From contig CM059431.1 of NCBI GenBank assembly GCA_030390025.1, positions 96,660,001-96,724,000 of the forward strand: a DNA stretch of 64,000 nucleotides. Reading direction: 5' to 3'. Positions 37,168 through 55,693 of this stretch are shown piece by piece; position 1 is the stretch's first letter; every line of letters starts with the position of its first letter. Position numbers and translations under genes: made by a program. Origin of the DNA: Squalus acanthias (taxonomy: Eukaryota). The notes beneath the pieces were generated by a model that did no database searches, had not been told where the DNA came from, and saw nothing but the letters and a program-made list of their open reading frames with translations.

Positions 37168-39282
37168 TTTCAAATAAAACTGTTGGACTATAACCTGGTG
37201 TTGTGCGACTTCTCACTTTTGTCCACCTCAGTCCAACACCGGCATCTCCGCAAAATAAATTAAAGCTAGTATTAAGTCAAAGGAGGAAGCTTATAACGTT
37301 GCCAGAAAAAGCGGTCAGCCTGAAGATTGGGATCTTTTCAGAAATCAGCAAAGGGGGACCAAGAAATTGATAAAGAAAGGGAAAATGGAATAAGAGCACA
37401 ATCTAGCAAAAAATATAAAAACGGATTGTAAAAGCTTCGAAAGGTATGTGAAAAGGAAAAGACTGGCGAAGGTAAATGTGGATCCTTTACAGTCAGAGAT
37501 GGGAGAATTTATAATGGGGAATGAGGAAATGGCAGAGAAATTAAATAAATACTTTGCTTCTGTTTTCACGGAGGAAGACACAAATAACCTCCCAGAAATA
37601 TGAGAAAAGCAAGGGTGGGGTGAGAATGAGGAACTTAAAGAAATTATTATTTGTAAAAAAACAGTACTAGCAAAATTAATGGGACTATAGGTCGATAAAT
37701 CCCAAGGACCGGATGAACTACATCCTAGGGTTTTGAAGGAGGTGGCCATTGGGATAGTGGACGCATTGGTTGTCATCTTCCAAAATTCTATAGATTCTGG
37801 AATGGTTCCTGCAGATTGGAGGATAGCAAATGTAACCCCGCTATTTAAGAAAGGAGGGAGAGAGAAAACGGGGAACTACAGACCTGTAAGCCTCACATCA
37901 GTAGTCGGGAAAATGCTGGAATCTATTATAAAGGATGCAATAACTGGGCACTTAGAAACTAATAGTAAGATTGGGCAGAGTCGACATGGATTTATGAAAG
38001 GGAAATCCTGTTTGACAAACCTATTGGAGTTCTTTGAGGATGTAACGAGTGGAGTCGACAAAGGGGAACCGGTAGATGTGGTGTATTTGGATTTTCAGAA
38101 GGCCTTCGATAAGGTCCCACATAAGAGGTTGGTGAACAAAATTAGGGCACATGGAATTGGGGGTAATATACTAGCATAGATTGAGAATTGGTTAACAGAC
38201 AGAAAACAAAGAGTAGGGATAAACGGGCCTTTTTCAGGATGGCAGGCTGTGACTAGTGGGGTACCGCAAGGATCGGTGCTTGGGCCCCAGCTATTCACAA
38301 TCTATATCAATGATTTGGATGAGAGTATTAAATGTAACATTTCCAAATTTGCTGATGATACAAAGCTAGGTGGCAGTGTCAGTTGTGAAGAGGATGTGAA
38401 GAGGCTTCAAGGGGATCTCGACAGGCTCAGTGAGTGGGCGAGAACATGGTAGATGGAATATAATGTGGATAAATGTGAAGTTATCCACTTTGGTAGAAAA
38501 AACAGAAAGGCAGAGTATTTCCTAAATGGTGAAAGATTGGGGAATGCAGATGCTCAAAGGGACCTGGGTGTCCTTGTACATGAGTCACTGAAAGTGAATG
38601 TGCAGGTGCAGCAAGCCATTAGGAAGGCAAATGGTATGCTGGCCTTCATTACAAGAGGATTTGAGTACAGGAGTAAAGAAGTCTTACTCCAATTATATAG
38701 GGCCTTGGTGAGACCACACCTGGAGTACTGTGTACAATTTTGGTCTCCTTACCTAAGGAAGGATATACTTGCCATAGAGGGAGTGCAACGAAGGTTCACA
38801 AGATTGATTCCTGGGATGGCGGGACTGTCGTATGAGAAGAGATTGAGTAAACTAGGCCTGTATTCTCTTGAATTCAGAAGAATGAGAGGGGATCTCATTG
38901 AAGCATACAAAATTATTACAGGGCTTGATAGGGTGGATGCTGGGAGAATGTTTCCCTTGGCTGGGGAGTTTAGAACCAGGGGCCACAGCCTCAGGATAAA
39001 GGGTAGGCCATTCAGGACCGAGATGAGAAAAAATTTCTTCACACAGAGGGTGGTGAATCTTTGGAATTCTCTACCCCAGAGGGCTGTGGAGGCTCAGTCA
39101 TTGGGTATATTCAAAACAGAAGTCGATAAATTTCTGACAGGTAAAGGCATCAAGGGATATGACGATAGGGCTGGTGAATGGAGTTGAGGCAGAAGATCAG
39201 CCATGATCATATTGAATGGCGGAGCAGGCTTGAAGGGCCGAATGGCCTATTCCTGCTCCTATTTTTCTATGTTTCTGTTTCT

Positions 39283-39608
39283 AAATGTTTCCCCTGGCTG
39301 GGGAATCTAGAACCAGGGGTCATAGTATCAGAATAAGGGGCAGCCATTTAAGACTGAGATGAGGAGAAATTTCTTCACTCAAAGGGTTGTGAATCTTTGG
39401 AATTCTCTACCCCAGAGGGCTGTGGATACTCAGTCGTTGAGTATATTCAAGACAGAGGTCGATAAATTTTTGGGAATGAAGGGAATTAAGGGATAGGGGG
39501 ATAGTGCGGGAAGGTGGAGTTGAGGTAGATAAGCCATGATCTTATTGAATGGCGGAGCAGGTTCGAGGGGCCAAATGCCCTACTCCAGCTCCTATTCTTG
39601 TGTTCTTA
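39283..39608 (+). mobile_element. CR1 fragment A, right part with 3' tail
   Basis: MFPLAGESRTRGH...; tail TTCTTGTGTTCTTA. Confidence 0.88.
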
Positions 39609-41069: not shown

Positions 41070-43674
41070 TAACATAAGAACATAAGACGTAGGAGCAGTA
41101 GGTCGTCATTTGGCCCCTCGAGCCTGCTCCGCCATTCAATAAGATCATGGCTGATCTGATCTTGGCCTCAACTCCACTTCCCTGCCCGCTCCCCATAACC
41201 CTTGACTCCCTTATCATTCAAAAATCTGTCTATCTCCACCTTAAATATATTCAATGACCCAGCCTCCACAGCTATCTGGGGAAGAGAATTCCACAGATTC
41301 ACGACCCTCAGAGAAGAAATTCCTCATTTCCAATTTAAAAGGGTTTCCCCTTATTCTGAAATTGTGCCCCCTAGTTCTGGATTCCCCCACGAGGGGAAAC
41401 ATCCTCTCTGCATCCACCCTGTCAAGTCCCTTCAGAATCTTATATGTTTCAATAAGATCCCCTCTCATTCTTCTAAACTCCAATGAGTATAGGCCCAACC
41501 TGCTCAACCTTTCTTCATAAGACAACCCCTTCATCTCCGGAATCAACCTCGTGAACCTTCTCTGAACTGCCTCCAATGCAAGTATATCCTTCCTTAAATA
41601 AGGAGACCAAAACTGTACGCAGTACTCCAGGTGTGGTCTCACCAACGCCCTGTACAGTTGTAATAGGACTTCCCTACTTGCATACTCCATTCCCTTTGCA
41701 ATAAAGGCCAACATTCCATTTGCCTTCCTAATTGCTTGCTGTACCTGCATGCTAACTTTTTGTGATTCATGTACGAGGACCCCCAGATCTCTGTACCTCA
41801 TCATTTTGTAATCTCTCCCCATTTAAATAATAATTTGCTTTTTATTTTTCCTACCAAAGTGGATAACCTCACATTTTCCCACATTAAACTCCATCTGCCA
41901 GATTTTTGCCCACTCACTTAGCCTATCTATATCCCTTTGCAGATTCTTTGCATCCTCTACACAATTTGCTTTCTCACTTATCTTTGTATCATCAGCAAAT
42001 TTGGCTACATTACAGTCCCTTCATCCAAGTCATAAATATAGATTGTAAATAATTGAGGCCCCAGCACTGATCCCTGCGGCACCCCACTAGTTACCGTTTG
42101 CCAACCTGAAAATGACCCATTTATCCCGACTCTCTGTTTTCTGTTAGTTAGCCAATTCTCTATCCATGCTAATATATTACCCCCAACCCCGTGAGCTCTT
42201 ATCTTGTGTAGTAACCTTTTATGTGGCATCTTATCGAATGCCTTCTGGAAATCCAAATACACAACATTTACTGGTTCCCCTTTATCCACCCTGCTCGTTA
42301 CATCCTCAAAGAACTCCAGCAAATTTGTCAAACATGATTTCCCTTTCATAAAACCATGCTGACTCTGCTTGACTATATTATGATTTTCTAAATGTCCTGC
42401 TATCACTTCCTTAATGATGGACTCCAGCATTTTCCCAATGACAGATGTTAGGCTAACTGGTCGATAGTTGCCTGCTTTCGGTCGCCCTCCTTTCTTAAAT
42501 AGAGGCGTTACATTTGCGGTTTTCCAGTCCGCTGGGACCGCTCCACAATCCAGGGAATTTTGGTAGATTACAACCAATGCATCCACTATCTCTGCAGCCA
42601 CCTCTTTTAAGACCCTAGGATGCAGGCCATCGGGTCCAGGGGACTTGTCCACCTTTAGTCCCATTAGTTTGCCTAGTACTTTCTCTCTAGTGATAGTGAT
42701 TGTTTAAGTTCCCGCCCCCCACCCCAATAGCCCCTTGATCATACATTATTGGAATGCTTTTAGTGTCTTCGACCGTGAAGACCGATACAAAATATTTGTT
42801 CAAAGTCTTCGCCATTTCCCTGTTTCCCATTATTAATTCCCCAGACTCATCCTCTGGGGGACAAACGTTTACTTTAGCTACTCTGTTCCTTTTTATTTAC
42901 CTGTAGAAGCTCTTACTGTCTGTTTTTATATTGCTTGTTAACTTACTCTCATAAGCTATCTTCTCTCTATCATTTTTTTAGTCATCCTTTGCTGGTTTTT
43001 AAAAAATCCCAATCCTCTGGCCTTTCACTATCCTTCGCAACATTGTATGCTTTTGTTTTCAATTTGATACCATCCTTTACTTCCTTAGTTAGCCACGGAT
43101 GGTTCATCCTTCTCTTAAGAGTCTTTCTTTCTCACTGGAATATATCTTTGCTGAGAGTTATGAAATATCTCCTTAAATGTTTGCCACTGCTTTTCTACAG
43201 TCGTACCCTGTAATATATTTTCCCAGTCCACTTTAACCAAGTCTGCCTTCATACCTTTGTAATTACCTTTGTTTAAGTTCAGGACACTAGTTTGAGACCT
43301 AGCTTTCTCACCCTCAAACTGAATTTGAAATTCTACCATGCTATGATCACTCTTCCCAAGAGGATCCTTCACTTCGAGATCATTAATTAATCCAGCCTCG
43401 TTACACATTACCAGATCTAAAATAGTCTTCTCCCTGGTTGGTTCCACAACATATTGTTCCAAGAAACCATCCCGTATACACTCTAAGAACTCTTCCTCAA
43501 GCCGACCTTTGCCAATTTGCTTTGTCCAATCAATATGAAGATTAAAATCTCCGATGATTATATCCGTACCTTTCTTACAAGCCTCTATTATTTCTTGATT
43601 TATTCTCTGTCCTACAGTGTGGCTACTGTTTGGGGGCCTGGAGACCACTCCCACCAGTGACTTTTTACCCTTAT

Positions 43675-43868
43675 TGTGGTAACACAATACAGCTTCCTGT
43701 GACTCGAACTTTATTGCATCACTTCCTGTGATTAGTCCAGGATAAATACTGGACTGATCAGTTGGATCCTGGAGAGGCATAGAGTAAGACCTCTTTTGTA
43801 TGTAGCACCTTTTTAGTTGATTAAAGCTTACTTTAAGTTCACCACGCGTAAGGCTCATTCTTACGACA
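43675..43868 (+). repeat. 5' LTR
   Basis: Matches 48122-48315 with 3 substitutions by eye. Confidence 0.97.
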
Positions 43869-43946
43869 ATTTAATCAACTTTGGAAAACTTCGCACTCAA
43901 ACTTTTTGGACGAACTCGGAACGAAGGATCCAGGGAATCACCCATC

Positions 43947-46900
43947 ATGGAAAACATCCTTAAACCATCGCTTCTTGACTTGGACCCAAACACCCCAGCA
44001 GCCGGTAAGGTGTGGAAACACTGGTATCGCACGTTTGACAATTTTCTTGAATATTGTAAGGCTGATGATGACTCAAAGTTGCGGATACTCATCAACTGTG
44101 TCACCCCGAATGTATTTCAGTATGTGGAGGAATGGGACAGTTACGAGGAGGCAATTCGGACGCTTAAGAGACTATATACTAAGACACCGAATGAGGTCTA
44201 TGCCAGACATCTACTAGCTACAGCCCAACAAGGGCCGGAGGAATCCATTGATAAATTCCTCCAAGAGCTTCGCAGACTTAGTATGGACTGTAACTTTCAG
44301 GCGGCCTCAGCTGAGCTGTACCGTGAAGAAATGATCCGTGATGCTTTCATCTGCGGGCTTGCCTCCCCATTTATATGCCAGCGTCTACTGGAAAGTAAGA
44401 CACTTGAGCTTCAGAGAGCTTATGACATGGCTTGCTCTCTAGATCTGGCAAAAAGAAATGCAGACCTTTATACAGTGCCCAGACCTCGGTCTACTGCCTT
44501 AACTACAGTCAGGCAATTTAAGAGGCCACAGGTGAACTCTATTAGGCAGGACTTTATCCCTGACGATCAATCTGATGACTTCACTGATGAAGAGGATGAT
44601 GACCCCACTGTGGCAGCCTCTTGGCAATCTAAGAAATGCTTCTTTTGTGGTGATGAGTTTCACCCTCGGAAATTCTGCCCTGCTCGCAATGCGTTTTGCA
44701 GTCATTGCAACAAAAAGGGTCATTTTGCAAAGGTTTGCCTATCAAGAGCCTCTACGAGGGCTTATCAAGCTAAGTCCTACCGAACTGCCCCGGTAAGGGC
44801 CTATCAAGATGTTCCGGCTAAAATCTATCGTGCTTCCTCTTGGGTTTCCTCTCGAAGAAACACACCTAGAGTTTCAGCCACTCTTTGTGCAACGACACCA
44901 ATTACAGCTGCTTGTCCTCAGAACCTATTCCATGCAGCTACAAAAGCATCAATTAATGGACATACTTTAGATGCCTTAATTGACTCAGGTAGCACGGATA
45001 GTTTCATTAGGGAACAGATTGTTGCAGAGTTAAAGCTACATGTTTTCCCATCGGACCAGGCAATTGCGATGGCTCAGTCATCACTTAATACCAGAATTTC
45101 TGGCTTTTGTATGGTTGAAATAACACTTAATGGTCGCAGGTATCCCTCCACCCGGCTTTCGGTGCTCAAGGACTTATGTAGTGATCTTATCTTAGGGCTG
45201 GATTTTCAAAAGCAGCATATGTTAGGGGGATATGTTAGGGGGAATTAAATACGTGGGGTTACGGGGGTAGGGTGGGATATGTGTACTGTGGGGATTAAAG
45301 CAGGGACTGGATTTGGATGATCAGCCATGATCGTATTGAATGGCGGAGCAGGCTCGACGGGCCGAATGGCCTACTCCTGCTCCTAGATTCTATGTTTCTA
45401 TGTTTCTATGTTTCTATAAGAAGCTCACCATTGAGTTCGGCGGATCCAAACCTGAACTCACTATTTCTAATATACGACCTCGATTACCGTTCTGTGCATT
45501 GTCAGCAGCTTCACTGGATGAACCCTCACTGTTTGCCAGTATCCCTCCTCGATGCAAACCGATTATAACAAAGTCACGACGTTTCAGTCAGGAAGACCAG
45601 TCTTTTATTGCGGCTGAGATTTCTCGGCTTTTAGCAGAGGATATCATCGAGCCTTGTTCGTCGCCATGGCGCGCCCAGGTCGTTATTGTTAAGAACCCTC
45701 TACAACCTCACAAGAAACGGCTGTGCATTGACTATTCACAGACCATCAATCAATATACGGACTTGGACGCATACCCATTGCCGCGCATCGATGATATGGT
45801 TAATAAACTGGCTGAGTACACGGTGTTCTCAACATATGATCTGAAAAGTGCCTATCATCAGGTACCCTTGAAGGTCTCAGACAAACAGTATACGGCCTTT
45901 GAAGCCAATGGACGGCTGTATCAATTTCGTCGCCTCCCCTTTGGGGTCACTAATGGAGTGGCTGTCTTCCAGCGAGCAATGGATGACCTGGTCAAACAGG
46001 AAGACTTGAAGGATACGATTCCTTATCTGGACAATATTACTGTCGCAGGTCGCAATCAGCGGGAACATGACGCCAATCTCCAACGATTTTGGGATGCACT
46101 CCAGCACCGTAATTTGACATTAAATGCGGCTAAATCCATTGAGTCACAACCAACCATCAACATCCTTGGCTATTGTGTGGGCAATGGCATCATTAAACCT
46201 GACCCTGAAAGGCTTCGCCCACTCCAAGAACTCCCGCCACCTAAGAATCCGGCCTCCTTGCGCCGGGCCCTCGGCCTGTTTGCATACTATGCTAAATGGA
46301 TTCCTAACTTCTCGGACCGAATCCAACCTCTACTGAAGGCCAGCACATTCCCACTAGACACAGCGGCGGTTGCAGCCTTTAACCTCCTGAAAAGACAGTT
46401 GGAGAAAGCGGCTCTTCACTCCATCGATGAGAGTCTTCCTTTTGTTGTTGAGTGTGATGCCTCGGAGGTGGCGATCTTGGCCACTCTGAATCAGGAAGGT
46501 CGTCCGGTGGCATTTTTGTCCAGGACTTTTCAAGGGGCTGAGCTACATTATCCTCCAGTCGAGAAAGAAGCTACAGCCATCATAGAGGCAGTACGGAAGT
46601 GGAGTCATCTCCTAGCTCGCCAGCACTTTACCTTAATCACGGACCAGCGGTCGGTCGCCTTCATGCTCGATAATCGAAAACGGACCAAAATTAAAAATAA
46701 TAAAATCCAGCTTTGGCGGCTGGAATTGGCCTCTTTTGGTTACACCATCCACTATCGACCTGGCAAGGAGAATGTGGCTCCGGATACCCTCACACGAGCA
46801 TTCTGCTCCGCCATGGCACCCTCTACGCTCGTAGACATCCATGATGGGTTGTGTCATCCGGGCGTTACTCGCATGCTACACTTCGTGCGGTCCTGAAATC

Positions 46901-48102
46901 TTCCATTCTCTACCGGGGATGTAAAGAAGATGTGCTCGGACTGCAGAGTCTGTGCGGAATTGAAACCTCAGTTTTTCCGCCCCTCGGGTGGTATACTCAT
47001 ACATGCGACCCAGCCAATGCAACAGCTTAGCATCGATTTTAAGGGACCGTTGCCCTCTTCAACTCGCAACACTTATCTGTTGACCATGGTCGATGAGTAT
47101 TCCCGTTTTCCGTTTGCCTTTCCCTGCCCCAATATGCTGACGACCACGGTTATCAGCTGCCTTGAGCAGGTATTTGCTTTCTGTGGCATGGCATCCTATG
47201 TTCATTCGGATCGGGTCCCTTCTTTTATGTCAGGAGAACTCAAGGCCTATCTCTTGGAACGGGGTATTGCTGCCAGCAGAACGACGCCTTATCATCTGGT
47301 CGGGAATGGGCAAGTCGAGTGTTTTAACACTATCATCTGGAATGCGGTACGTCTGGCTTTGAGATCTCTGGGCCTACCCAACCAGCAATGGGAAGCAGTA
47401 CTTCCAGACGCATTACACTCCACACGGTCCCTCCTTTCGACCGCCACAAATACGACGCCTCATGAACGGTTCTTCCGATTTCAGCGTCGCTCATCCTATG
47501 GGATATCTCTCCCGTCGTGGCTGACTACACCGGGACCAGTGCTACTCCGAAGATATGTCCGGGCGTCTAAGAATGACCCCCTGGTAGATGAAGTTGAGCT
47601 CACTGACGTCAACCCTACCTACGCCTATATTCGGTATCCTGACGGTCGGGAATCTACCGTGTCATTGCGGGATCTGGCTCCCTGCCCGCCGAAACATAGA
47701 GGGACACCAGGGGATGATATTGTACCAGGCACATCTCTGGGCTCGCCAGGTGCCTCTCATCACGATCTGGATCTGACGCCGGCTGGTACCTCACTCCAGC
47801 GTGCCGACCTGGGGCAGACTGACTATGAGCCCGTCGGGGCTCGCACGCGCAGCCACGATCCACCCCGTACCGTACGCTCGGAAACGGATCTGCCACAGCC
47901 CTGCCCGACACCCGTTCGGGCACCAGTACACAGTCAGGATCGTCCTGACCTCTCACAGAGCGGGCTGGATCACTCGGACTCTGGTCCACGGCCCGCGGCG
48001 GGTAAACGGGCATGGGGCCCTCTACCGCTACGAGAACCCAAACGGGTGCGGCTCTCCCTCGTCCAGCGGCTACGAAATGGAGGGAGCATCCCGGCCTCCT
48101 AA
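43947..48102 (+). pseudogene. Gypsy single-ORF gag-pol, disabled by one CR1 insertion and one stop
   Basis: Two CCHC knuckles, IDSGS protease, YLDN RT, CDAS RNase H, HPG..C..C and IDFKG/VDEYSR/HSD integrase; frame continuous after removing 45219-45417; TGA at 46894-46896. Confidence 0.92.
45219..45417 (+). mobile_element. CR1 3' UTR fragment inserted in Gypsy pol
   Basis: GATCAGCCATGATC..GGCGGAGCAGGCTCG..(TTCTATGT)n tail. Confidence 0.92.
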
Positions 48103-48121
48103 TCTTTTGGGGGGGGGAGAA

Positions 48122-48315
48122 TGTGGTAACACGATACAGCTTCCTGTGACTCGAACTATATTGCATCACTTCCTGTGATTAGTCCAGGATAAATACTGGA
48201 CTGATCAGTTGGATCCTGGAGAGGCATAGAGTAAGACCTCTTTTGTATGTAGCACCTTTTTAGTTGATTAAAGCTTACTTTAAGTTCACCACGCGCAAGG
48301 CTCATTCTTACGACA
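48122..48315 (+). repeat. 3' LTR
   Basis: Preceded by the polypurine tract GGGGGGGGGAGAA. Confidence 0.97.
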
Positions 48316-48834
48316 CTTATTATTTCTTATCTCCACCCAAACTGATTCTACGTCTTGATCTTCTAGGCTAATATCATTTCTCATTACTGCACTGATCTCA
48401 TCCCTTATTAACAGAGCTACACCACCTCCTTTTCCTTTCTGCCTATCCTTACAAAATGGCAAAAAACCCTGAATATTCAGTTCCCAGCCTTGGTCATCTT
48501 GCAACCACATCTCTGTAATGGCTATCAGATCATACCCATTTATTTCTATTTGTGCTGTCAACTCATCTATCTTGTTACGAATGCTGCGTGCGTTCAGATG
48601 TAGAGCTTTTAATTTTGTCTTATCATTTTTCCCTACTCTGACCCCTCTTTCTGATGCACTCTTATGTGTATACGCTCTGTCCCTTCCTGTCGCACTCTGG
48701 TTATCATTACCCCTATCGCTACCCTGCACTTTTGCCTTCTCATTTTTCTTTGACTTTTTAAATTTCCACTCAGCCTATCCCTCCCCCCACCACTGCAGCA
48801 GCCCCCTGCCACCCCCCCCACCCCGCCCGACTCT

Positions 48835-49774: not shown

Positions 49775-51629
49775 CTCTAATGTATTTAATGAATTAAGTG
49801 TTTAAAAGTTTTGAACGTTAAGTTTTTAATCCCGGATCTTAATTTAAACCAATGCCCAAGAAAACAGAGAAATACTGACCAACCAATCACTTCCCTGCTT
49901 TCCTGTGACGTCACTCCTTGTTTTTGTTGTCAGGTCCACTGCCTCTACTCTCGGGCCTTCCGCTGCCGCGCTGTTTATTTGCTCCGCCTCCGCTCTTGCT
50001 CCCGCTCAGGTCCGCTGCCTCTGCCTTTTCCGTGATGTCACCTTTTATTTTTCTCAGAATGTGGTTGGGGGTTTCAGAGCCGAACTCCCACTGGTTCTCT
50101 GTCCCCTCTCATGCAGACTTTTAACTCCTGCTCTCCTGGAGGCTGACAAAGATAAAAAAAGAAAGGAGCACCTCCCTCCCCTCCTCACCGAACTCGCACG
50201 TTTACACTCTGTTCCAAGCTGCACTCTATCACAAACTGCACTCTAGCCTCCCTGATTTATACTACTGAGATTTATGAGTCACCTCTCTGGCAGCTGCAGA
50301 TCCAGACCAGTTAATTAATTAACTAGCCCCACCCGCTCTCCAGCACAGAGCTTGCCTTGCCCTGCCCAAGCCTGGAAGAAACTTAAAACTTAAAAACAGT
50401 AAATTTAAGTTAAATGCTCATTGCAAGCACACAAGACTAGATTTTATATTTAAAAAATTAACCCTTAAGATTCACGGAGTACAGAAATCACCAAAAGCTG
50501 GTGCACAGTTACAAAAAGTAATCAAAAAGGCTAGTAAAATGTTGGCCTTTATCTCAAAGAGGGTTGTAGTACAAATGTGGAATTCTTCCCCACCCAACCC
50601 CCAATCCCGCCAACCGCCCCCCCCCCCCCCCCCCGGCTGCAAATGCTGGGGGTCAATTAAAATTTTCAAGACTGAGAGCGATAGATTTTCGTGAGGTAAG
50701 GGTATCAAGTAATATGGATCAAAGGCAGGATAACACTCCTGTGAAGCGCCTTGGGACGTTTTACTACGTTAAACGTGTTGTATAAATACAAGTTGTTGTT
50801 GTTGAGGTACAGATCAGCCATGATCTCATTGAATGGCAAAACAGGCTCAAGGGGCTAAATGGCCTTCCCTTGTTCCAATTTTCCAGTCACTTCACAGAGC
50901 AGCAAAGGGAGTGGACATTGAGCCTTTGTGAAAGTCTGGTCTAAGAGATGGGTTTTGAGAAGGAGAGGTTAAGGGAAGGAGTTCCAAAAAGTAGGGCTGG
51001 GACAGCTGCTCCAGGAGTGGAGTGGAAATCTAACAGGAGGGAATGTACAGGTGATATCAGTTATGGTTTGAAGGGTTTAGGATGAGACACAAGGCTAGAG
51101 AAGATTGCAGAGATAGGATGGGGGAAGGTTTTGTAGATGAGGATTTTAAATTTGATGTATTGAGGAATGGGGAGTCACTATAGCTCAGTGAAGACTGGGG
51201 AAGTGGGAGTAGAGACAGCAACAATAGATTGGATAAGGGTTTTGATGATCGTGGGGGTTAGATAGGGGCAAGGGTGGGCAACGATCTGAAGGCAAAGGCA
51301 AGCGGCCAAGATATGGAGTGTTAAGCTCAGCTTGAGGTTATGTACAGTCTTGTTCAGCTATGCAAGTGGCACAGAATCTGAGGACAATATCGAAAGTAAA
51401 AACCTCAAAACCATGAAAGGAACTAAAAATAGGAAGGTTTCCAGGCTCATTTTGTTTTTATCTAGAAGTTTGGAGAGGAGATAGCGGAGACACAGACAAT
51501 AACTTTACAGAATTTTTTTGGAAACAGGAACTCTTAAGGACTGGAAGGATGTGGGAAACATAACACCTGTGTTCAACAAAAAGGGGCAGGAATAAACCAG
51601 AAAATGACAGGCCTTGCCTCTGTGGCACT

Positions 51630-52223: not shown

Positions 52224-54187
52224 GCACTGTATACAAATAATTGGAAGTTCACTGCGTGACTGGGGTCCTGAGCTGCTGCAGTAGGGGGTCGTCATGGCAG
52301 TGTGTAGATGATGGAAAGTAACCCAAGTTCTCTACAGCAGAGACAGGGATATTCAGAAAATGGAAGTTGCAGCAAGCGATACTGGTTGGTAACTGGTATC
52401 ATGCAGATATGAGGGACGACAGTTTAACAGGCCAATTCTACTGCTGATTTTGTTTGTTTTGATTCAGAGATGTTGCACTGCAAAGATGAGAGTTATGGAT
52501 CAGCCCTTCCATTGGTCTAAAGATTAAAGATAGTGAAATTGGCCTTTGGCTGCAGTGCAGAACAGGCGATAACGAATCAGCAACCCGATTTCCATTAACT
52601 TCCATTTTGTACTTTCGCTGAAGACCAATTTCCTCTCCCTTGTGCCGAGAGTGCCTCTGTCACATCTCATCGCGTAGCCGCATATGTCTGTAGGAAATAT
52701 CGGTGGCTGGAGGAAATGAAGGGTTACCTAATGGAGAAATTGGATATTTTATTGGTGATTTAACATGAACAAATCAAAAGTACTTTGATTCCATCAGTAA
52801 TGAAATCATTCCAACCGCCACCCACCCCCCACCCCCCAACCCCCACTCCCCAGTAAAATGTACCAATCCCAAACTGGCAACTCAAAGGAAGCCCCAAATC
52901 AAACCTCTCCAAAACTTTTCTTTAGCTGGTTTGAGCCACCATTCCCTCCCCTCAGGTGAAAATTTGTCAAGAGTAAGATTAATAATGCAAGAAACCTCCA
53001 AAAAAAAATTGTGAATAAAGCACTTTTGTTGCCTCTATGGTGCAGATCCCTAGAAAACATTTTCATGCAGGCTTGTTCCTGGAAAACTTGGCTGGAGTTT
53101 GACTTGTTCGGACTTTTCCCCCACCCTTGAAATCGTCCAGGTTCCTCCTGATTGGCTGCAGTCTGCAAACCACAGCAAGCCATCGCTTCAGATTTTATGG
53201 CATCAAATTATAGTTTAATAGTCTCTCACTAATCTATTGAGTTTCATCACATATTGGAGCTGGAAAGGGAGGAGGGGGTCTTGCATTATATATTAGGATT
53301 TAATCATTGATCCAGACAATGCAAACCAGGACCCTTTGGACCTTATCGATGGACAACGTGCTCTTTGTGTTTATTAAAACAGATTTTACTAATTCAATGT
53401 GCAGGCCTGGGTCCTTCAGCTTTGTTTATTCCCACTAAACCAGGTCAGCAACTCAATAGCCCGATGCGCCCATCTCCTGCACCACTTCACTGGGCAGTAT
53501 TTTTTTTTAATTCATTCACAGGATGTGGACATCGCCGGCTAGGCCAGCATTTATTGCCCATCCCTAATTGCTCGAGAAGGTGGTGGTGAGCTGCCTTCTT
53601 GAACCGCTGCAGTCTGTGTCGTGAAGGTGCTCCCACAGTGCTGTTAGGTAGGGAGGGAGTTACAGGATATTGACCCAGATACGGTGAAGGAAAGGAACTA
53701 TACATTCAAGTCAGGATGGTGTGCAACTTTGAGGTGGTGGTGTTCTCATGCGCCTGCTGCCCTCGTCTTTCTAGGTGGTAGAGGTCGTGGGTTTGGGAGG
53801 TGCTGCCGAAGAAGTCTTGGCAAGTTGCTGCAGTGCATCTTATAGATGGTACACACTGCAGCCACGGTGCGTCATTGGTGAAGGGAGTGAATGTATCAGG
53901 TGGTGGATGGAGTGCCAATCAAGCGGACTGCTTTGTCTTGGATGGTGTCGAGCTTCTTGAGTGTTTTGGAGCTACATTCATCCAGGCAAGTGGAGAGTAT
54001 TCCATCACACTCCTGACTTGTGCCTCGTAGGTGGTGGAAAGGCTGTGGGGAATCAGGAGATGAGACACTCGCCGCAGAATACCCAGCCTCTGACCTGCTC
54101 TTGTAGCCACAGTATTTACTGGTTCAGTTAAGTTTCTGGTCAATGGTGACCCCCAGGATATTTATGGTTGGGGATCTGATGATGGTA

Positions 54188-55693
54188 CATAAGAACATAA
54201 GAAATAGGAGCAGGAGTAGGCCATTCGGCCCTTCGAGCCTGCTCCGCCATTCAATGAGATCATGGCTGATCTTCTGCCTCAACTCCATTCACCGGCCTTA
54301 TCGCCATATCCCTTGATGCCCTTACTTGTCAGAAATCTATCGACTTCTGTTTTGAATATACCCAATGACTGAGCCTCCACAGCCCTCTGGGGTAGAGAAT
54401 TCCAAAGATTCACCACCCTCTGTGTGAAGATATTTCTTCTCATCTCAGTCCTGAATGGCCTACCCTTTATCCTGAGGCTGTGGCCCCTGGTTCTAGACTC
54501 CCCAGCCAAGAGAAACATTCTCCCAGCATCCACCCTATCAAGCCCTGTAATAATTTTGTATGCTTCAATGAGATCCCCTCTCATTCTTCTGAATTCAAGA
54601 GAATACAGGCCTAGTTTACTCAATCTCTTCTCATACAACAGTCCCGCCATCCCAGGAATCAATCTTGTGAACCTTCGTTGCACTCCCTCAATGGCAAGTA
54701 TATCCTTCCTTATGTAAGGAGACCAAAATTGTACACAGTACTCCAGGTGTGGTCTCACCAAGGCCCTATATAATTGGAATAAGACTTCTTTACTCCTGTA
54801 CTCAAATCCTCTTGTAATGAAGGCCAGCATACCATTTGCCTTCCTAATGGCTTGCTGCACCTGCACATTCACTTGCAGTGACTCATGTACAAGGACACCC
54901 AGGTCCCTTTGAGCATCTGCGTTCCCCAATCTTTCACCATTTAGGAAATACTCTGCCTTTCTGTTTTTTCTACCAAAGTGGATAACTTCACATTTATCCA
55001 CATTATAATCCATCTGCCATGCTCTCGCCCACTCACTGAGCCTGTCGAGATCCCCTTGAAGCCTTTTCAAACTGACACTGCCACCTAGCTTTGTGTCATC
55101 AGCAAATTTGGAAATGTTACATTTAGTCCCCTCATCCAATTCATTGATATAGATTGTAAATAGCTGGGGCCCAAGCACCGATCCTTGTGGTACCCCACTA
55201 GTCACAGCCTGCCATCCTGAAAAAGACCCGTTTATCCCTACTCTTTGTTTTCTGTCTGTTAACCAATTCTCAATCCATGCTAGTATATTACCCCCAATTC
55301 CATGTGCCCTAATTTTGTTCACCAGCCTCATGCGTGGGACCTCATCGAAGGCCTTCTGAAAATCCAAATACACCACATCTACCGGTTCGCCTTTGTCTAC
55401 TCCACCAGTTAGATCCTCAAAGAACTCCAATAGGTTTGTCAAACAGGACTTCCCTTACATACATCCATGTCGACTCTGCCCAATCTTACTATTGGTTTCT
55501 AAGTGCCCAGTTATTGCATCCTTTATAATAGATTCCAGCATTTTCCCAACTACTGATATGAGGCTAAAAGGTCTGTAGTTGCCCATTTTCTCTCTCCCTC
55601 CTTTCTTAAATAGCGGGGTTACATTTGCTATCCTCCAATCTGCAGGAAACGTTCCAGAATCTGCAGAATTTTGGAAGTTGACAACCAATGCCA
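54188..55693 (-). mobile_element. CR1 3' part (subfamily C)
   Basis: ORF 54279-55442 (387 aa), near-identical to the copy at about 38000-39187. Confidence 0.95.

Follow-up and report, generated by a model that had tools for sequence, protein, structure and literature searches.

In a stretch of 64,000 nucleotides from the genome of Squalus acanthias (GenBank assembly GCA_030390025.1, contig CM059431.1, positions 96,660,001 to 96,724,000 of the forward strand; hereafter the window, counted from its first letter), a Ty3/gypsy retrotransposon was found on the + strand at 43675-48315. Our analysis suggests that this element most likely primes its own reverse transcription with a segment of its own long terminal repeat (LTR). 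No TGG-type primer site for a transfer RNA (tRNA) adjoins the 5' LTR of the window copy, the first TGG lying at 43882-84, 14 nt past the LTR. The site present there instead, TTTAATCAACT, and the LTR segment AGTTGATTAAA are exact reverse complements over 11 nt by direct reading. The self-priming reading rests on the finding that both sites vary in sequence between about 20 distinct lineages yet stay complementary, and the same fact argues against a host tRNA shared by these lineages. A preliminary description of this DNA had noted the missing tRNA site, the 11-nt complement and its overlap with an ATTAAA signal, and all three were borne out in the window. It had also proposed tRNA-independent priming in an element without an obvious chromodomain, which is supported by the co-varying sites and by the absence of a chromodomain from five of five polyproteins (the window copy and four of four full-length relatives).

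Complementary sites and their covariation

The features of the window copy that concern the proposed priming are the following:

43675..43868, + strand, 5' LTR of 194 bp (TG...CA), 98% identical to 48122-48315 with 3 differences
43815..43825, + strand, proposed self-primer segment AGTTGATTAAA in the LTR; last six bases ATTAAA, predicted primer 3' end A43825
43826..43838, + strand, small hairpin right after the primer segment (5 bp, 3-nt loop, one G-U) in the minimum free energy (MFE) structure
43847..43865, + strand, U5 hairpin of 7 bp (CGTAAGG / CTTACG region) in the MFE and centroid structures
43869, + strand, single unpaired A between the LTR end and the primer-binding site, A in 21 of 21 aligned sequences
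43870..43880, + strand, candidate primer-binding site TTTAATCAACT, complementary to 43815-43825

Three independent lines of evidence place the LTR end at 43868, namely the alignment of the 5' and 3' LTRs, the target duplication and the contigs of the empty site. Extension of the helix is blocked at both ends, T43814 standing opposite T43881 and G43826 opposite A43869; a spacer of the A43869 type does not pair with the base that follows the primer segment. When the LTR was shuffled, 0 of 2000 sequences gave a complement of at least 11 nt anchored at most 3 nt from the LTR end, and hand arithmetic gives a rough chance expectation of ~4 x 184 / 4^11 = 2e-4. The MFE fold of 43815-43950 includes the helix and two small U5 hairpins. 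Candidate hairpins of the ACCT..AGGT and GCCT..AGGC kinds can be seen at the equivalent place in several of the aligned relatives.

Relatives were collected with the segment that encodes reverse transcriptase (RT) and RNase H. The search returned 1430 proteins at E <=0.001, and the matches listed were 50-73% identical and carried source names of cnidarians, crustaceans, molluscs, flatworms, nematodes and spiders. An alignment of 20 matched proteins was used to scan metagenome contigs, giving 80 loci whose RT is 46-75% identical to that of the window element. Self-comparison identified 21 loci with repeats paired around the RT match, of which three were dropped: in L041 and L049 the pairs lie in coding sequence and the contigs wrap round, and in L092 the 3' copy is cut and there is no clear LTR end. 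The LTR-pair set comprises 19 elements, that is, the window element and 18 metagenome loci.

After the 5' LTR, the 19 elements read ...CA/A/TTTAA... or a variant, and none of them starts with TGG. An exact complement of 11-17 nt beginning 1-3 nt past the LTR end was found in 14 of the 19, and its partner in the LTR ends 37-65 nt ahead of the LTR end. Shuffling gave such a complement in 0 of 2000 trials for 13 of these elements and in 2 of 2000 for the other one. Near-exact sites stand at the equivalent place in L100 (2 mismatches), L119 (1) and L081 (~3). L077 is a decayed copy, the other members of its family being perfect, and L111 has no such site; the LTR pair of L111 is 74% identical and probably wrong. 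The L100 site shows a 12-nt match to the LTR of the L044 family versus 7 nt to its own LTR; the mismatch may have arisen through decay in its own LTR or through interfamily recombination.

Two further scans widened the sample. A hairpin scan of the 1-2 kb upstream of the RT covered 45 loci and found 15 canonical cases, including the new lineages L050, L074 and L101; three of its 18 hairpins (L077, L097, L099) were rejected as unrelated inverted repeats at other places, and its control count of 4394, inflated by low-complexity sequence, was not used. Anchoring on the gag start, with 11 loci scanned, revealed a canonical helix in L041, L049, L057, L088 and L110, and showed L079 to repeat the arrangement of L054. 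The upstream sequence of L063 and L112 is too short for a helix scan.

A second LTR family is present in the same genome (L173, minus strand) and carries a 12-nt complement, CAGTTGATTAAA / TTTAATCAACTG. It shares the primer core, the site and the LTR end ...CTTACGTCA with the window family and differs from it in U3 and U5; about 30 matches to it were listed by a genomic pattern search. A TATAAATA-type box was observed in this family ~80 nt upstream of the primer segment.

Ten examples, each a primer segment in the LTR with its paired site past the LTR, show how the two change together:

primer segment CAAGTTGATTAAA, paired site TTTAATCAACTTG
primer segment CAAGTTTATTAAA, paired site TTTAATAAACTTG
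primer segment TGAGTCGTTTAAA, paired site TTTAAACGACTCA
primer segment TTTAGCTAGTTAAA, paired site TTTAACTAGCTAAA
primer segment TTTAGTTAGTTAAA, paired site TTTAACTAACTAAA
primer segment TAAGCTGTTAAAA, paired site TTTTAACAGCTTA
primer segment AGTTATAGTAAATTAAA, paired site TTTAATTTACTATAACT
primer segment CTTTTGTTTGTTAAA, paired site TTTAACAAACAAAAG
primer segment TAAGTTGAATAAA, paired site TTTATTCAACTTA
primer segment TTGATGATGATAAAA, paired site TTTTATCATCATCAA

For the covariation analysis, 21 sequences were aligned from the primer segment to the site. RNAalifold recovered the long-range helix from this alignment unprompted, with both-side changes in 8 of 11 predicted pairs. In the helix of 17 pairs, 89.9% of the 357 cells pair (an inflated percentage, see below), compared with 27-49% when the 3' partners were slid by 1-3 columns and 72% in shuffles. 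Changes on both sides were found in 12 of the 17 pairs, so that the compensatory changes in related families that the preliminary description had proposed to look for do exist. The cells with both-side changes number 57 versus a shuffled mean of 15.5, and the covariation score was reached by 0 of 500 shuffles. A cross-control among twelve lineages gave a similar picture: the longest complement averages 12.5 nt in an element's own LTR versus 5.9 nt in the LTRs of the others, with the exception of lineages that have a common core.

The inner end of the helix was found to be invariant in all 21 sequences: the primer segment finishes with ...TAAA, GC or AC comes next, the LTR ends in CA, and the unpaired A and then the site stand beyond it. 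The outer end varies, giving helices of 11-19 nt, and the loop between the arms measures 24-68 nt; the homologous primer site in the relatives ends 34-65 nt ahead of the LTR end. Such a fixed inner end is expected if the primer has a defined 3' end. Helix-bearing elements occur in both halves of the RT tree about its midpoint root, in a quick, unfinished maximum-likelihood tree of the 53 of 80 loci with one uninterrupted segment of at least 330 aa, in which stops were written as X.

Proposed priming course and alternative explanations

The course of priming is most likely similar to that of Tf1, on which we modelled it. In the genomic RNA, the R segment 43815-43825 would fold back across a 44-nt R/U5 loop and pair with 43870-43880. 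A cut after A43825, presumably made by the RNase H of the element as in Tf1, would leave a 3'-OH, from which the RT would extend through A43869 and U5 back to 43826. The predicted product is a minus-strand strong-stop DNA of ~44 nt, covering 43826-43869, with its 5' end joined to RNA ending in ...AGUUGAUUAAA; this DNA would then be transferred to the 3' copy of R in the RNA.

The predicted primer end coincides with a polyadenylation signal in many of the relatives. The hexamer at this place is ATTAAA in 13 of the 21 aligned sequences, and most of the other rows have GTTAAA, TTTAAA, TTAAAA or GCTAAA; AATAAA was seen in L041 and L110. In some lineages whose hexamer is non-canonical, AATAAA or ATTAAA stands deeper in the loop. 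Primer and canonical poly(A) signal thus overlap frequently, though not universally, and the helix persists either way. It is possible that the helix masks the poly(A) signal in the 5' LTR, as the preliminary description had supposed, and this idea is speculative.

Several points weigh against self-priming or against the course set out here. The helix is short and A/U-rich, and the leader of 136 nt folds modestly better than shuffles (z = -1.87), 10 of 200 shuffles folding equally well. We infer from sequence the helix in the RNA, the cut and the enzyme that makes it, the transcript start, the strong-stop DNA, the borders of R and the poly(A) site. In Tf1 the primer forms the very 5' end of the RNA, whereas here it may lie inside R: ATAAATA at 43742-48 would predict a transcript start near 43770, ~40 nt upstream of 43815, and in the relatives no TATA-like motif keeps a constant distance to the helix. 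TTAGTTG, which resembles the initiator consensus, would place +1 at 43815. The rows of the 21-sequence alignment were anchored on the sites, and several were picked for having the helix, which inflates the paired percentage; the unbiased figure is 14 (plus 3 near-exact) of the 19 LTR-pair elements. In this set the LTR end was taken from the LTR pair in 17 elements, and in L046 and L048, whose 3' LTR is cut at the contig end, it was placed by eye via a shared motif. Lastly, no helix of at least 11 nt was found in L042, L053, L086 and L111, all of which have upstream sequence. The preliminary description had named loss of complementarity in relatives as evidence against its proposal; the complementarity is kept in the exact and near-exact cases of the LTR-pair set.

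A host RNA could be considered as the primer, such as a tRNA half or fragment (e.g., from the D-arm region) or another small RNA, with the match to the LTR being incidental or a mimicry. According to PMC6317226, priming by half-tRNAs exists in copia lineages. In Squalus, 10 of the 11 nt recur in the D-arm region of a tRNA-like pseudogene (L181), and our sample of host tRNAs covers the two isoacceptors Lys-TTT and Cys-GCA, which weighs on the same side as the points above: the genome search with RF00005 gave 63 matches, and the 38 loci scanned with ARAGORN were all tRNA-Lys(TTT) or tRNA-Cys(GCA). However, at 28.1 bits L181 falls short of the tRNA cut-off (29), receives no ARAGORN call and is a single locus. 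Rfam gave no family in 43650-43960 at E <=10 and ARAGORN no tRNA in the window, so that the comparison with host tRNAs foreseen in the preliminary description is answered in part, with one sub-cut-off pseudogene sharing 10 nt on one side and these two negative searches on the other. A pattern of 10 nt from the primer segment combined with a T-loop motif had 62 genomic matches, L181 among them, versus 39 for the reversed control, and most of the T-loop-pattern matches listed repeat LTR-internal sequence of the window family or of the second family. Above all, the site differs across lineages at most positions and always tracks its own LTR, which a conserved host RNA cannot explain, and none of the 21 aligned sequences has a TGG after the LTR. 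We regard priming by a host RNA as very improbable. As a separate observation, L181 is a tRNA-Ile-like pseudogene that lies beside a copy of an abundant short repeat.

The helix could also be real and serve another function, such as packaging or dimerisation of the U5-leader type or occlusion of the poly(A) signal, with priming achieved otherwise. In retroviruses, conserved U5-leader and U5-IR stems surround the primer site, and the present helix resembles them in that U5 or R pairs at or near this site. Since ATTAAA or AATAAA falls within the 5' arm in many lineages, occlusion of the 5' signal is conceivable, and the cut after 43825 is only predicted. Yet the retroviral stems flank the tRNA-binding site, whereas the present element offers no candidate primer site other than the paired 3' arm. 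This arm lies 1 nt past the LTR end, exactly the place required for primer annealing, and the LTR end is set by the start of the minus strand. The invariant inner end and the variable outer end (11-19 nt) are expected of a primer 3' end and not required of a masking stem, and lineages with GTTAAA, TTTAAA or TTAAAA keep the helix. A helix without a role in priming appears unlikely. That the 11-nt complement is a mere chance match, to which the A/T-rich sequence and the length of only 11 nt might lend themselves, has a negligible probability and was refuted by the shuffles and the covariation counts: no shuffle of the window LTR reproduced it, the arrangement recurs with different sequences in about 20 lineages, and the covariation controls did not reach the observed values.

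Structure, abundance and classification of the element

The remaining features of the window copy are listed below:

43670..43674, + strand, target-site duplication CTTAT, left copy, identical to the 5 nt at 48316-48320
43947..45216, + strand, gag with two CCHC knuckles (44637-44678 and 44697-44738) and aspartic protease (DSG 44982-44990)
45217..45415, + strand, insertion of ~199 nt between protease and RT, private to the window copy, breaking the gag-pol frame
45416..46893, + strand, RT (YLDN 46024-46035) and RNase H (DAS 46456-46464)
46894..46896, + strand, in-frame stop codon within the integrase zinc-finger region of the window copy
46897..48102, + strand, integrase core (D,D35E 47035-47319) and low-complexity C-terminus without chromodomain
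48109..48121, + strand, polypurine tract GGGGGGGGGAGAA, adjoining the 3' LTR
48122..48315, + strand, 3' LTR, with a second copy of the primer segment at 48262-48272
48316..48320, + strand, target-site duplication CTTAT, right copy

The borders of the element follow from a direct repeat of 98% identity (43675-43871 / 48122-48318), which trims to the pair of 194-bp LTRs flanked by CTTAT on both sides. Contigs from four sequencing runs were compared with the window, and they cover the element flanks in the manner of DNA; contigs from three runs connect 43669 straight to 48316 and represent the empty site. Purine-rich tracts precede the 3' LTR in the relatives too. The domain order gag-protease-RT-RNase H-integrase, established from open reading frames (ORFs) and Pfam, and the best match among solved structures, which is Ty3 Gag-Pol (E 2e-52), place the element in Ty3/gypsy (Metaviridae). 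Without the private insert its length is ~4.45 kb, which is very compact.

The insert at 45217-45415 is missing from the 10 other copies fetched, and contigs of four of four runs connect 45216 to 45416. It is a copy of a hugely abundant short repeat, with a contig depth ~400x that of the element. Owing to this private insertion and the in-frame stop, the window copy is defective. The short repeat has further copies in the window at 39192-39261, 39525-39594 and 50809-50878.

The surroundings of the element have features of their own. The element lies within a non-LTR retrotransposon on the minus strand (43115-43674 and 48321-48774) and splits its endonuclease-like ORF; the empty-site contigs of the three runs represent this retrotransposon without interruption. 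Direct repeats that are 75-88% identical and keep a constant spacing of ~13.1 kb lie on either side of it (41072-42313 and 54187-55424), which suggests an old segmental duplication or a larger repeat in two copies.

A genome search with 286 nt of LTR and leader returned 806 first-look candidates, and 40 of the 40 that were scored showed 100% identity. Ten full copies are 98-99% identical to the window copy, and the LTR pair of the latter differs at 3 of 194 positions. The family is young and abundant, which makes the primer arrangement that of an element active until recently. When LTR, site and leader were used to fetch genomic loci by similarity, each of the 40 loci had the identical 11-mer after the LTR; this agreement follows from the selection by similarity and is not independent evidence.

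Regarding classification, no Chromo match was obtained in the ORFs of the window at E <=0.01, and the last 200 aa of the window polyprotein matched no family at E <=10. The Gag scores 14 bits with PF03732 (Retrotrans_gag) in the window element and 16.5 bits in L046, versus a cut-off of 24.1. A whole-genome scan with PF03732 for sushi-type references gave no match, and the prokaryotic control genomes were also silent. Two CCHC arrays are present in the Gag, which is not the usual single array of chromoviruses; as described in PMC2577118, chromoviruses as a rule have one array, and Mag or Micropia two. Membership in Tf1/sushi is thus not supported on the features tested, which are the chromodomain, Retrotrans_gag and the number of CCHC arrays, and the element would work like Tf1/sushi yet fails these features. 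Among the 120 matches listed, the 6 with Swiss-Prot-style names are all '17.6' or 'opus' and none is Tf2 or Ty3, which is a hint only, and the nearest Atlas clusters bear the automatic name 'K02A2.6-like', which is only a lead. There are hints of a non-chromoviral position that may be related to Mag.

The catalytic box of the RT is YLDN (46024-46035) and not Y-x-D-D. Y-x-D-N occurs in at least 70 of the 120 relatives listed and Y-x-D-D in at least 18, while 22 were unmatched by the pattern and 10 belong to rarer classes. PMC554778 notes YVDN in the C. elegans elements Cer7-12 and calls RTs of this kind untested for activity. The presence of more than 800 near-identical copies suggests that the Asn form of the RT works.

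We also observed that the RT of the window element is 68-75% identical to proteins labelled as mantis shrimp, prawn, sea anemone, soft coral and Hydra and to that of the metagenome contig L041, and that near-identical 31-mers occur under five coded organism labels. Horizontal transfer of marine retrotransposons would give such a pattern of patchy high identity across phyla.

Relation to known elements and significance

Self-priming is regarded as a defining trait of Tf1/sushi and Tcn1 chromoviruses, and to our knowledge it has been demonstrated experimentally only for Tf1-type elements. Among vertebrate Tf1/sushi elements, sushi-ichi and its relatives are chromoviruses for which self-priming is predicted. 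The window element agrees with them in the animal host, the gypsy-type domain order and the predicted self-priming, and differs in lacking a chromodomain and in a Gag below the Retrotrans_gag cut-off.

Published accounts describe or predict self-priming for Tf1/sushi, Tcn1 and plant TAR copia elements (PMC6317226) and for 'some chromoviruses' (PMC3601003), and describe it for Tj1 of S. japonicus (PMC4600332). According to the last of these, Tf1/Tf2 of Schizosaccharomyces pombe and Tj1 likewise have no tRNA site, and their LTR-adjacent site pairs with ~11 nt of their own RNA; there is a stem-loop between the two arms, and the primer derives from the element's own transcript, as we infer for the window element. 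The Tf1 primer is the first 11 nt of the mRNA in the same text (PMC4600332), whereas the transcript start of the window element may lie upstream of the primer. Other differences from Tf1 are the primer 3' end ...TAAA, which often doubles as the poly(A) hexamer, the absence of a chromodomain, the two CCHC knuckles, the animal hosts and an RT that is mostly of the Y-x-D-N form. The Tcn1-like chromoviruses and plant TAR copia elements are similar in that self-priming was deduced for whole lineages from complementarity between primer site and LTR (PMC6317226); they belong to another superfamily or clade and to other kingdoms.

The Mag lineage (Steamer, Steamer-like, Jule, SURL) resembles the window element in its compact size of 4.4-5 kb and LTRs of ~150-300 bp. 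Several of the relatives have a single gag-pol frame of 1191-1243 aa. Mag also has two CCHC arrays, according to PMC2577118, and some of the LTR ends resemble, when compared by eye, the 3' motif AYANAACA given for Mag C in PMC3601003. Right behind its LTR, Steamer has the tRNA-Leu primer site TGGTGTCAGAAG (PMC8905726), and a tRNA-Asn site was predicted for MchSLE1 (PMC11046912). In contrast, a Steamer-type tRNA primer site is absent from the window element and its relatives, and the motif of the Steamer tRNA-Leu site occurs in the Squalus genome at chance level, with 40 matches versus 68 for the reversed control.

In the literature covered, from which subscription journals are mostly missing, no report of self-priming was found for a non-chromoviral gypsy lineage of animals, nor for any element outside the chromoviruses and plant TAR copia. 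The mechanism itself is known; the novelty lies in the lineage, in the conserved ...TAAA primer end over the poly(A) hexamer and possibly in the internal position of the primer. In a wider form, for which we hold the chances to be slightly better than even, a deep, animal-wide lineage of Ty3/gypsy without chromodomain, possibly related to Mag and mostly with Y-x-D-N, primes itself from an R segment with an invariant ...TAAA end that often doubles as the poly(A) hexamer.

If this is true, self-priming would not be peculiar to the Tf1/sushi chromoviruses, and its presence outside them would reflect either a renewed origin or the retention of an old trait; the mode of priming would be a character that evolves or persists beyond the chromoviruses. 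Annotation pipelines that score the tRNA primer site would mis-score the lineage as siteless or assign it a spurious tRNA. Silencing based on tRNA fragments acts on tRNA primer sites, according to a preprint (bioRxiv 10.64898/2026.01.22.698655), and would find no target in the window lineage. The overlap of primer and poly(A) hexamer and the Y-x-D-N motif in a successful family are further oddities that can be tested. For Squalus acanthias itself, the finding would mean that self-priming is in use in a recently active element with more than 800 copies in a 3.7-Gb genome.

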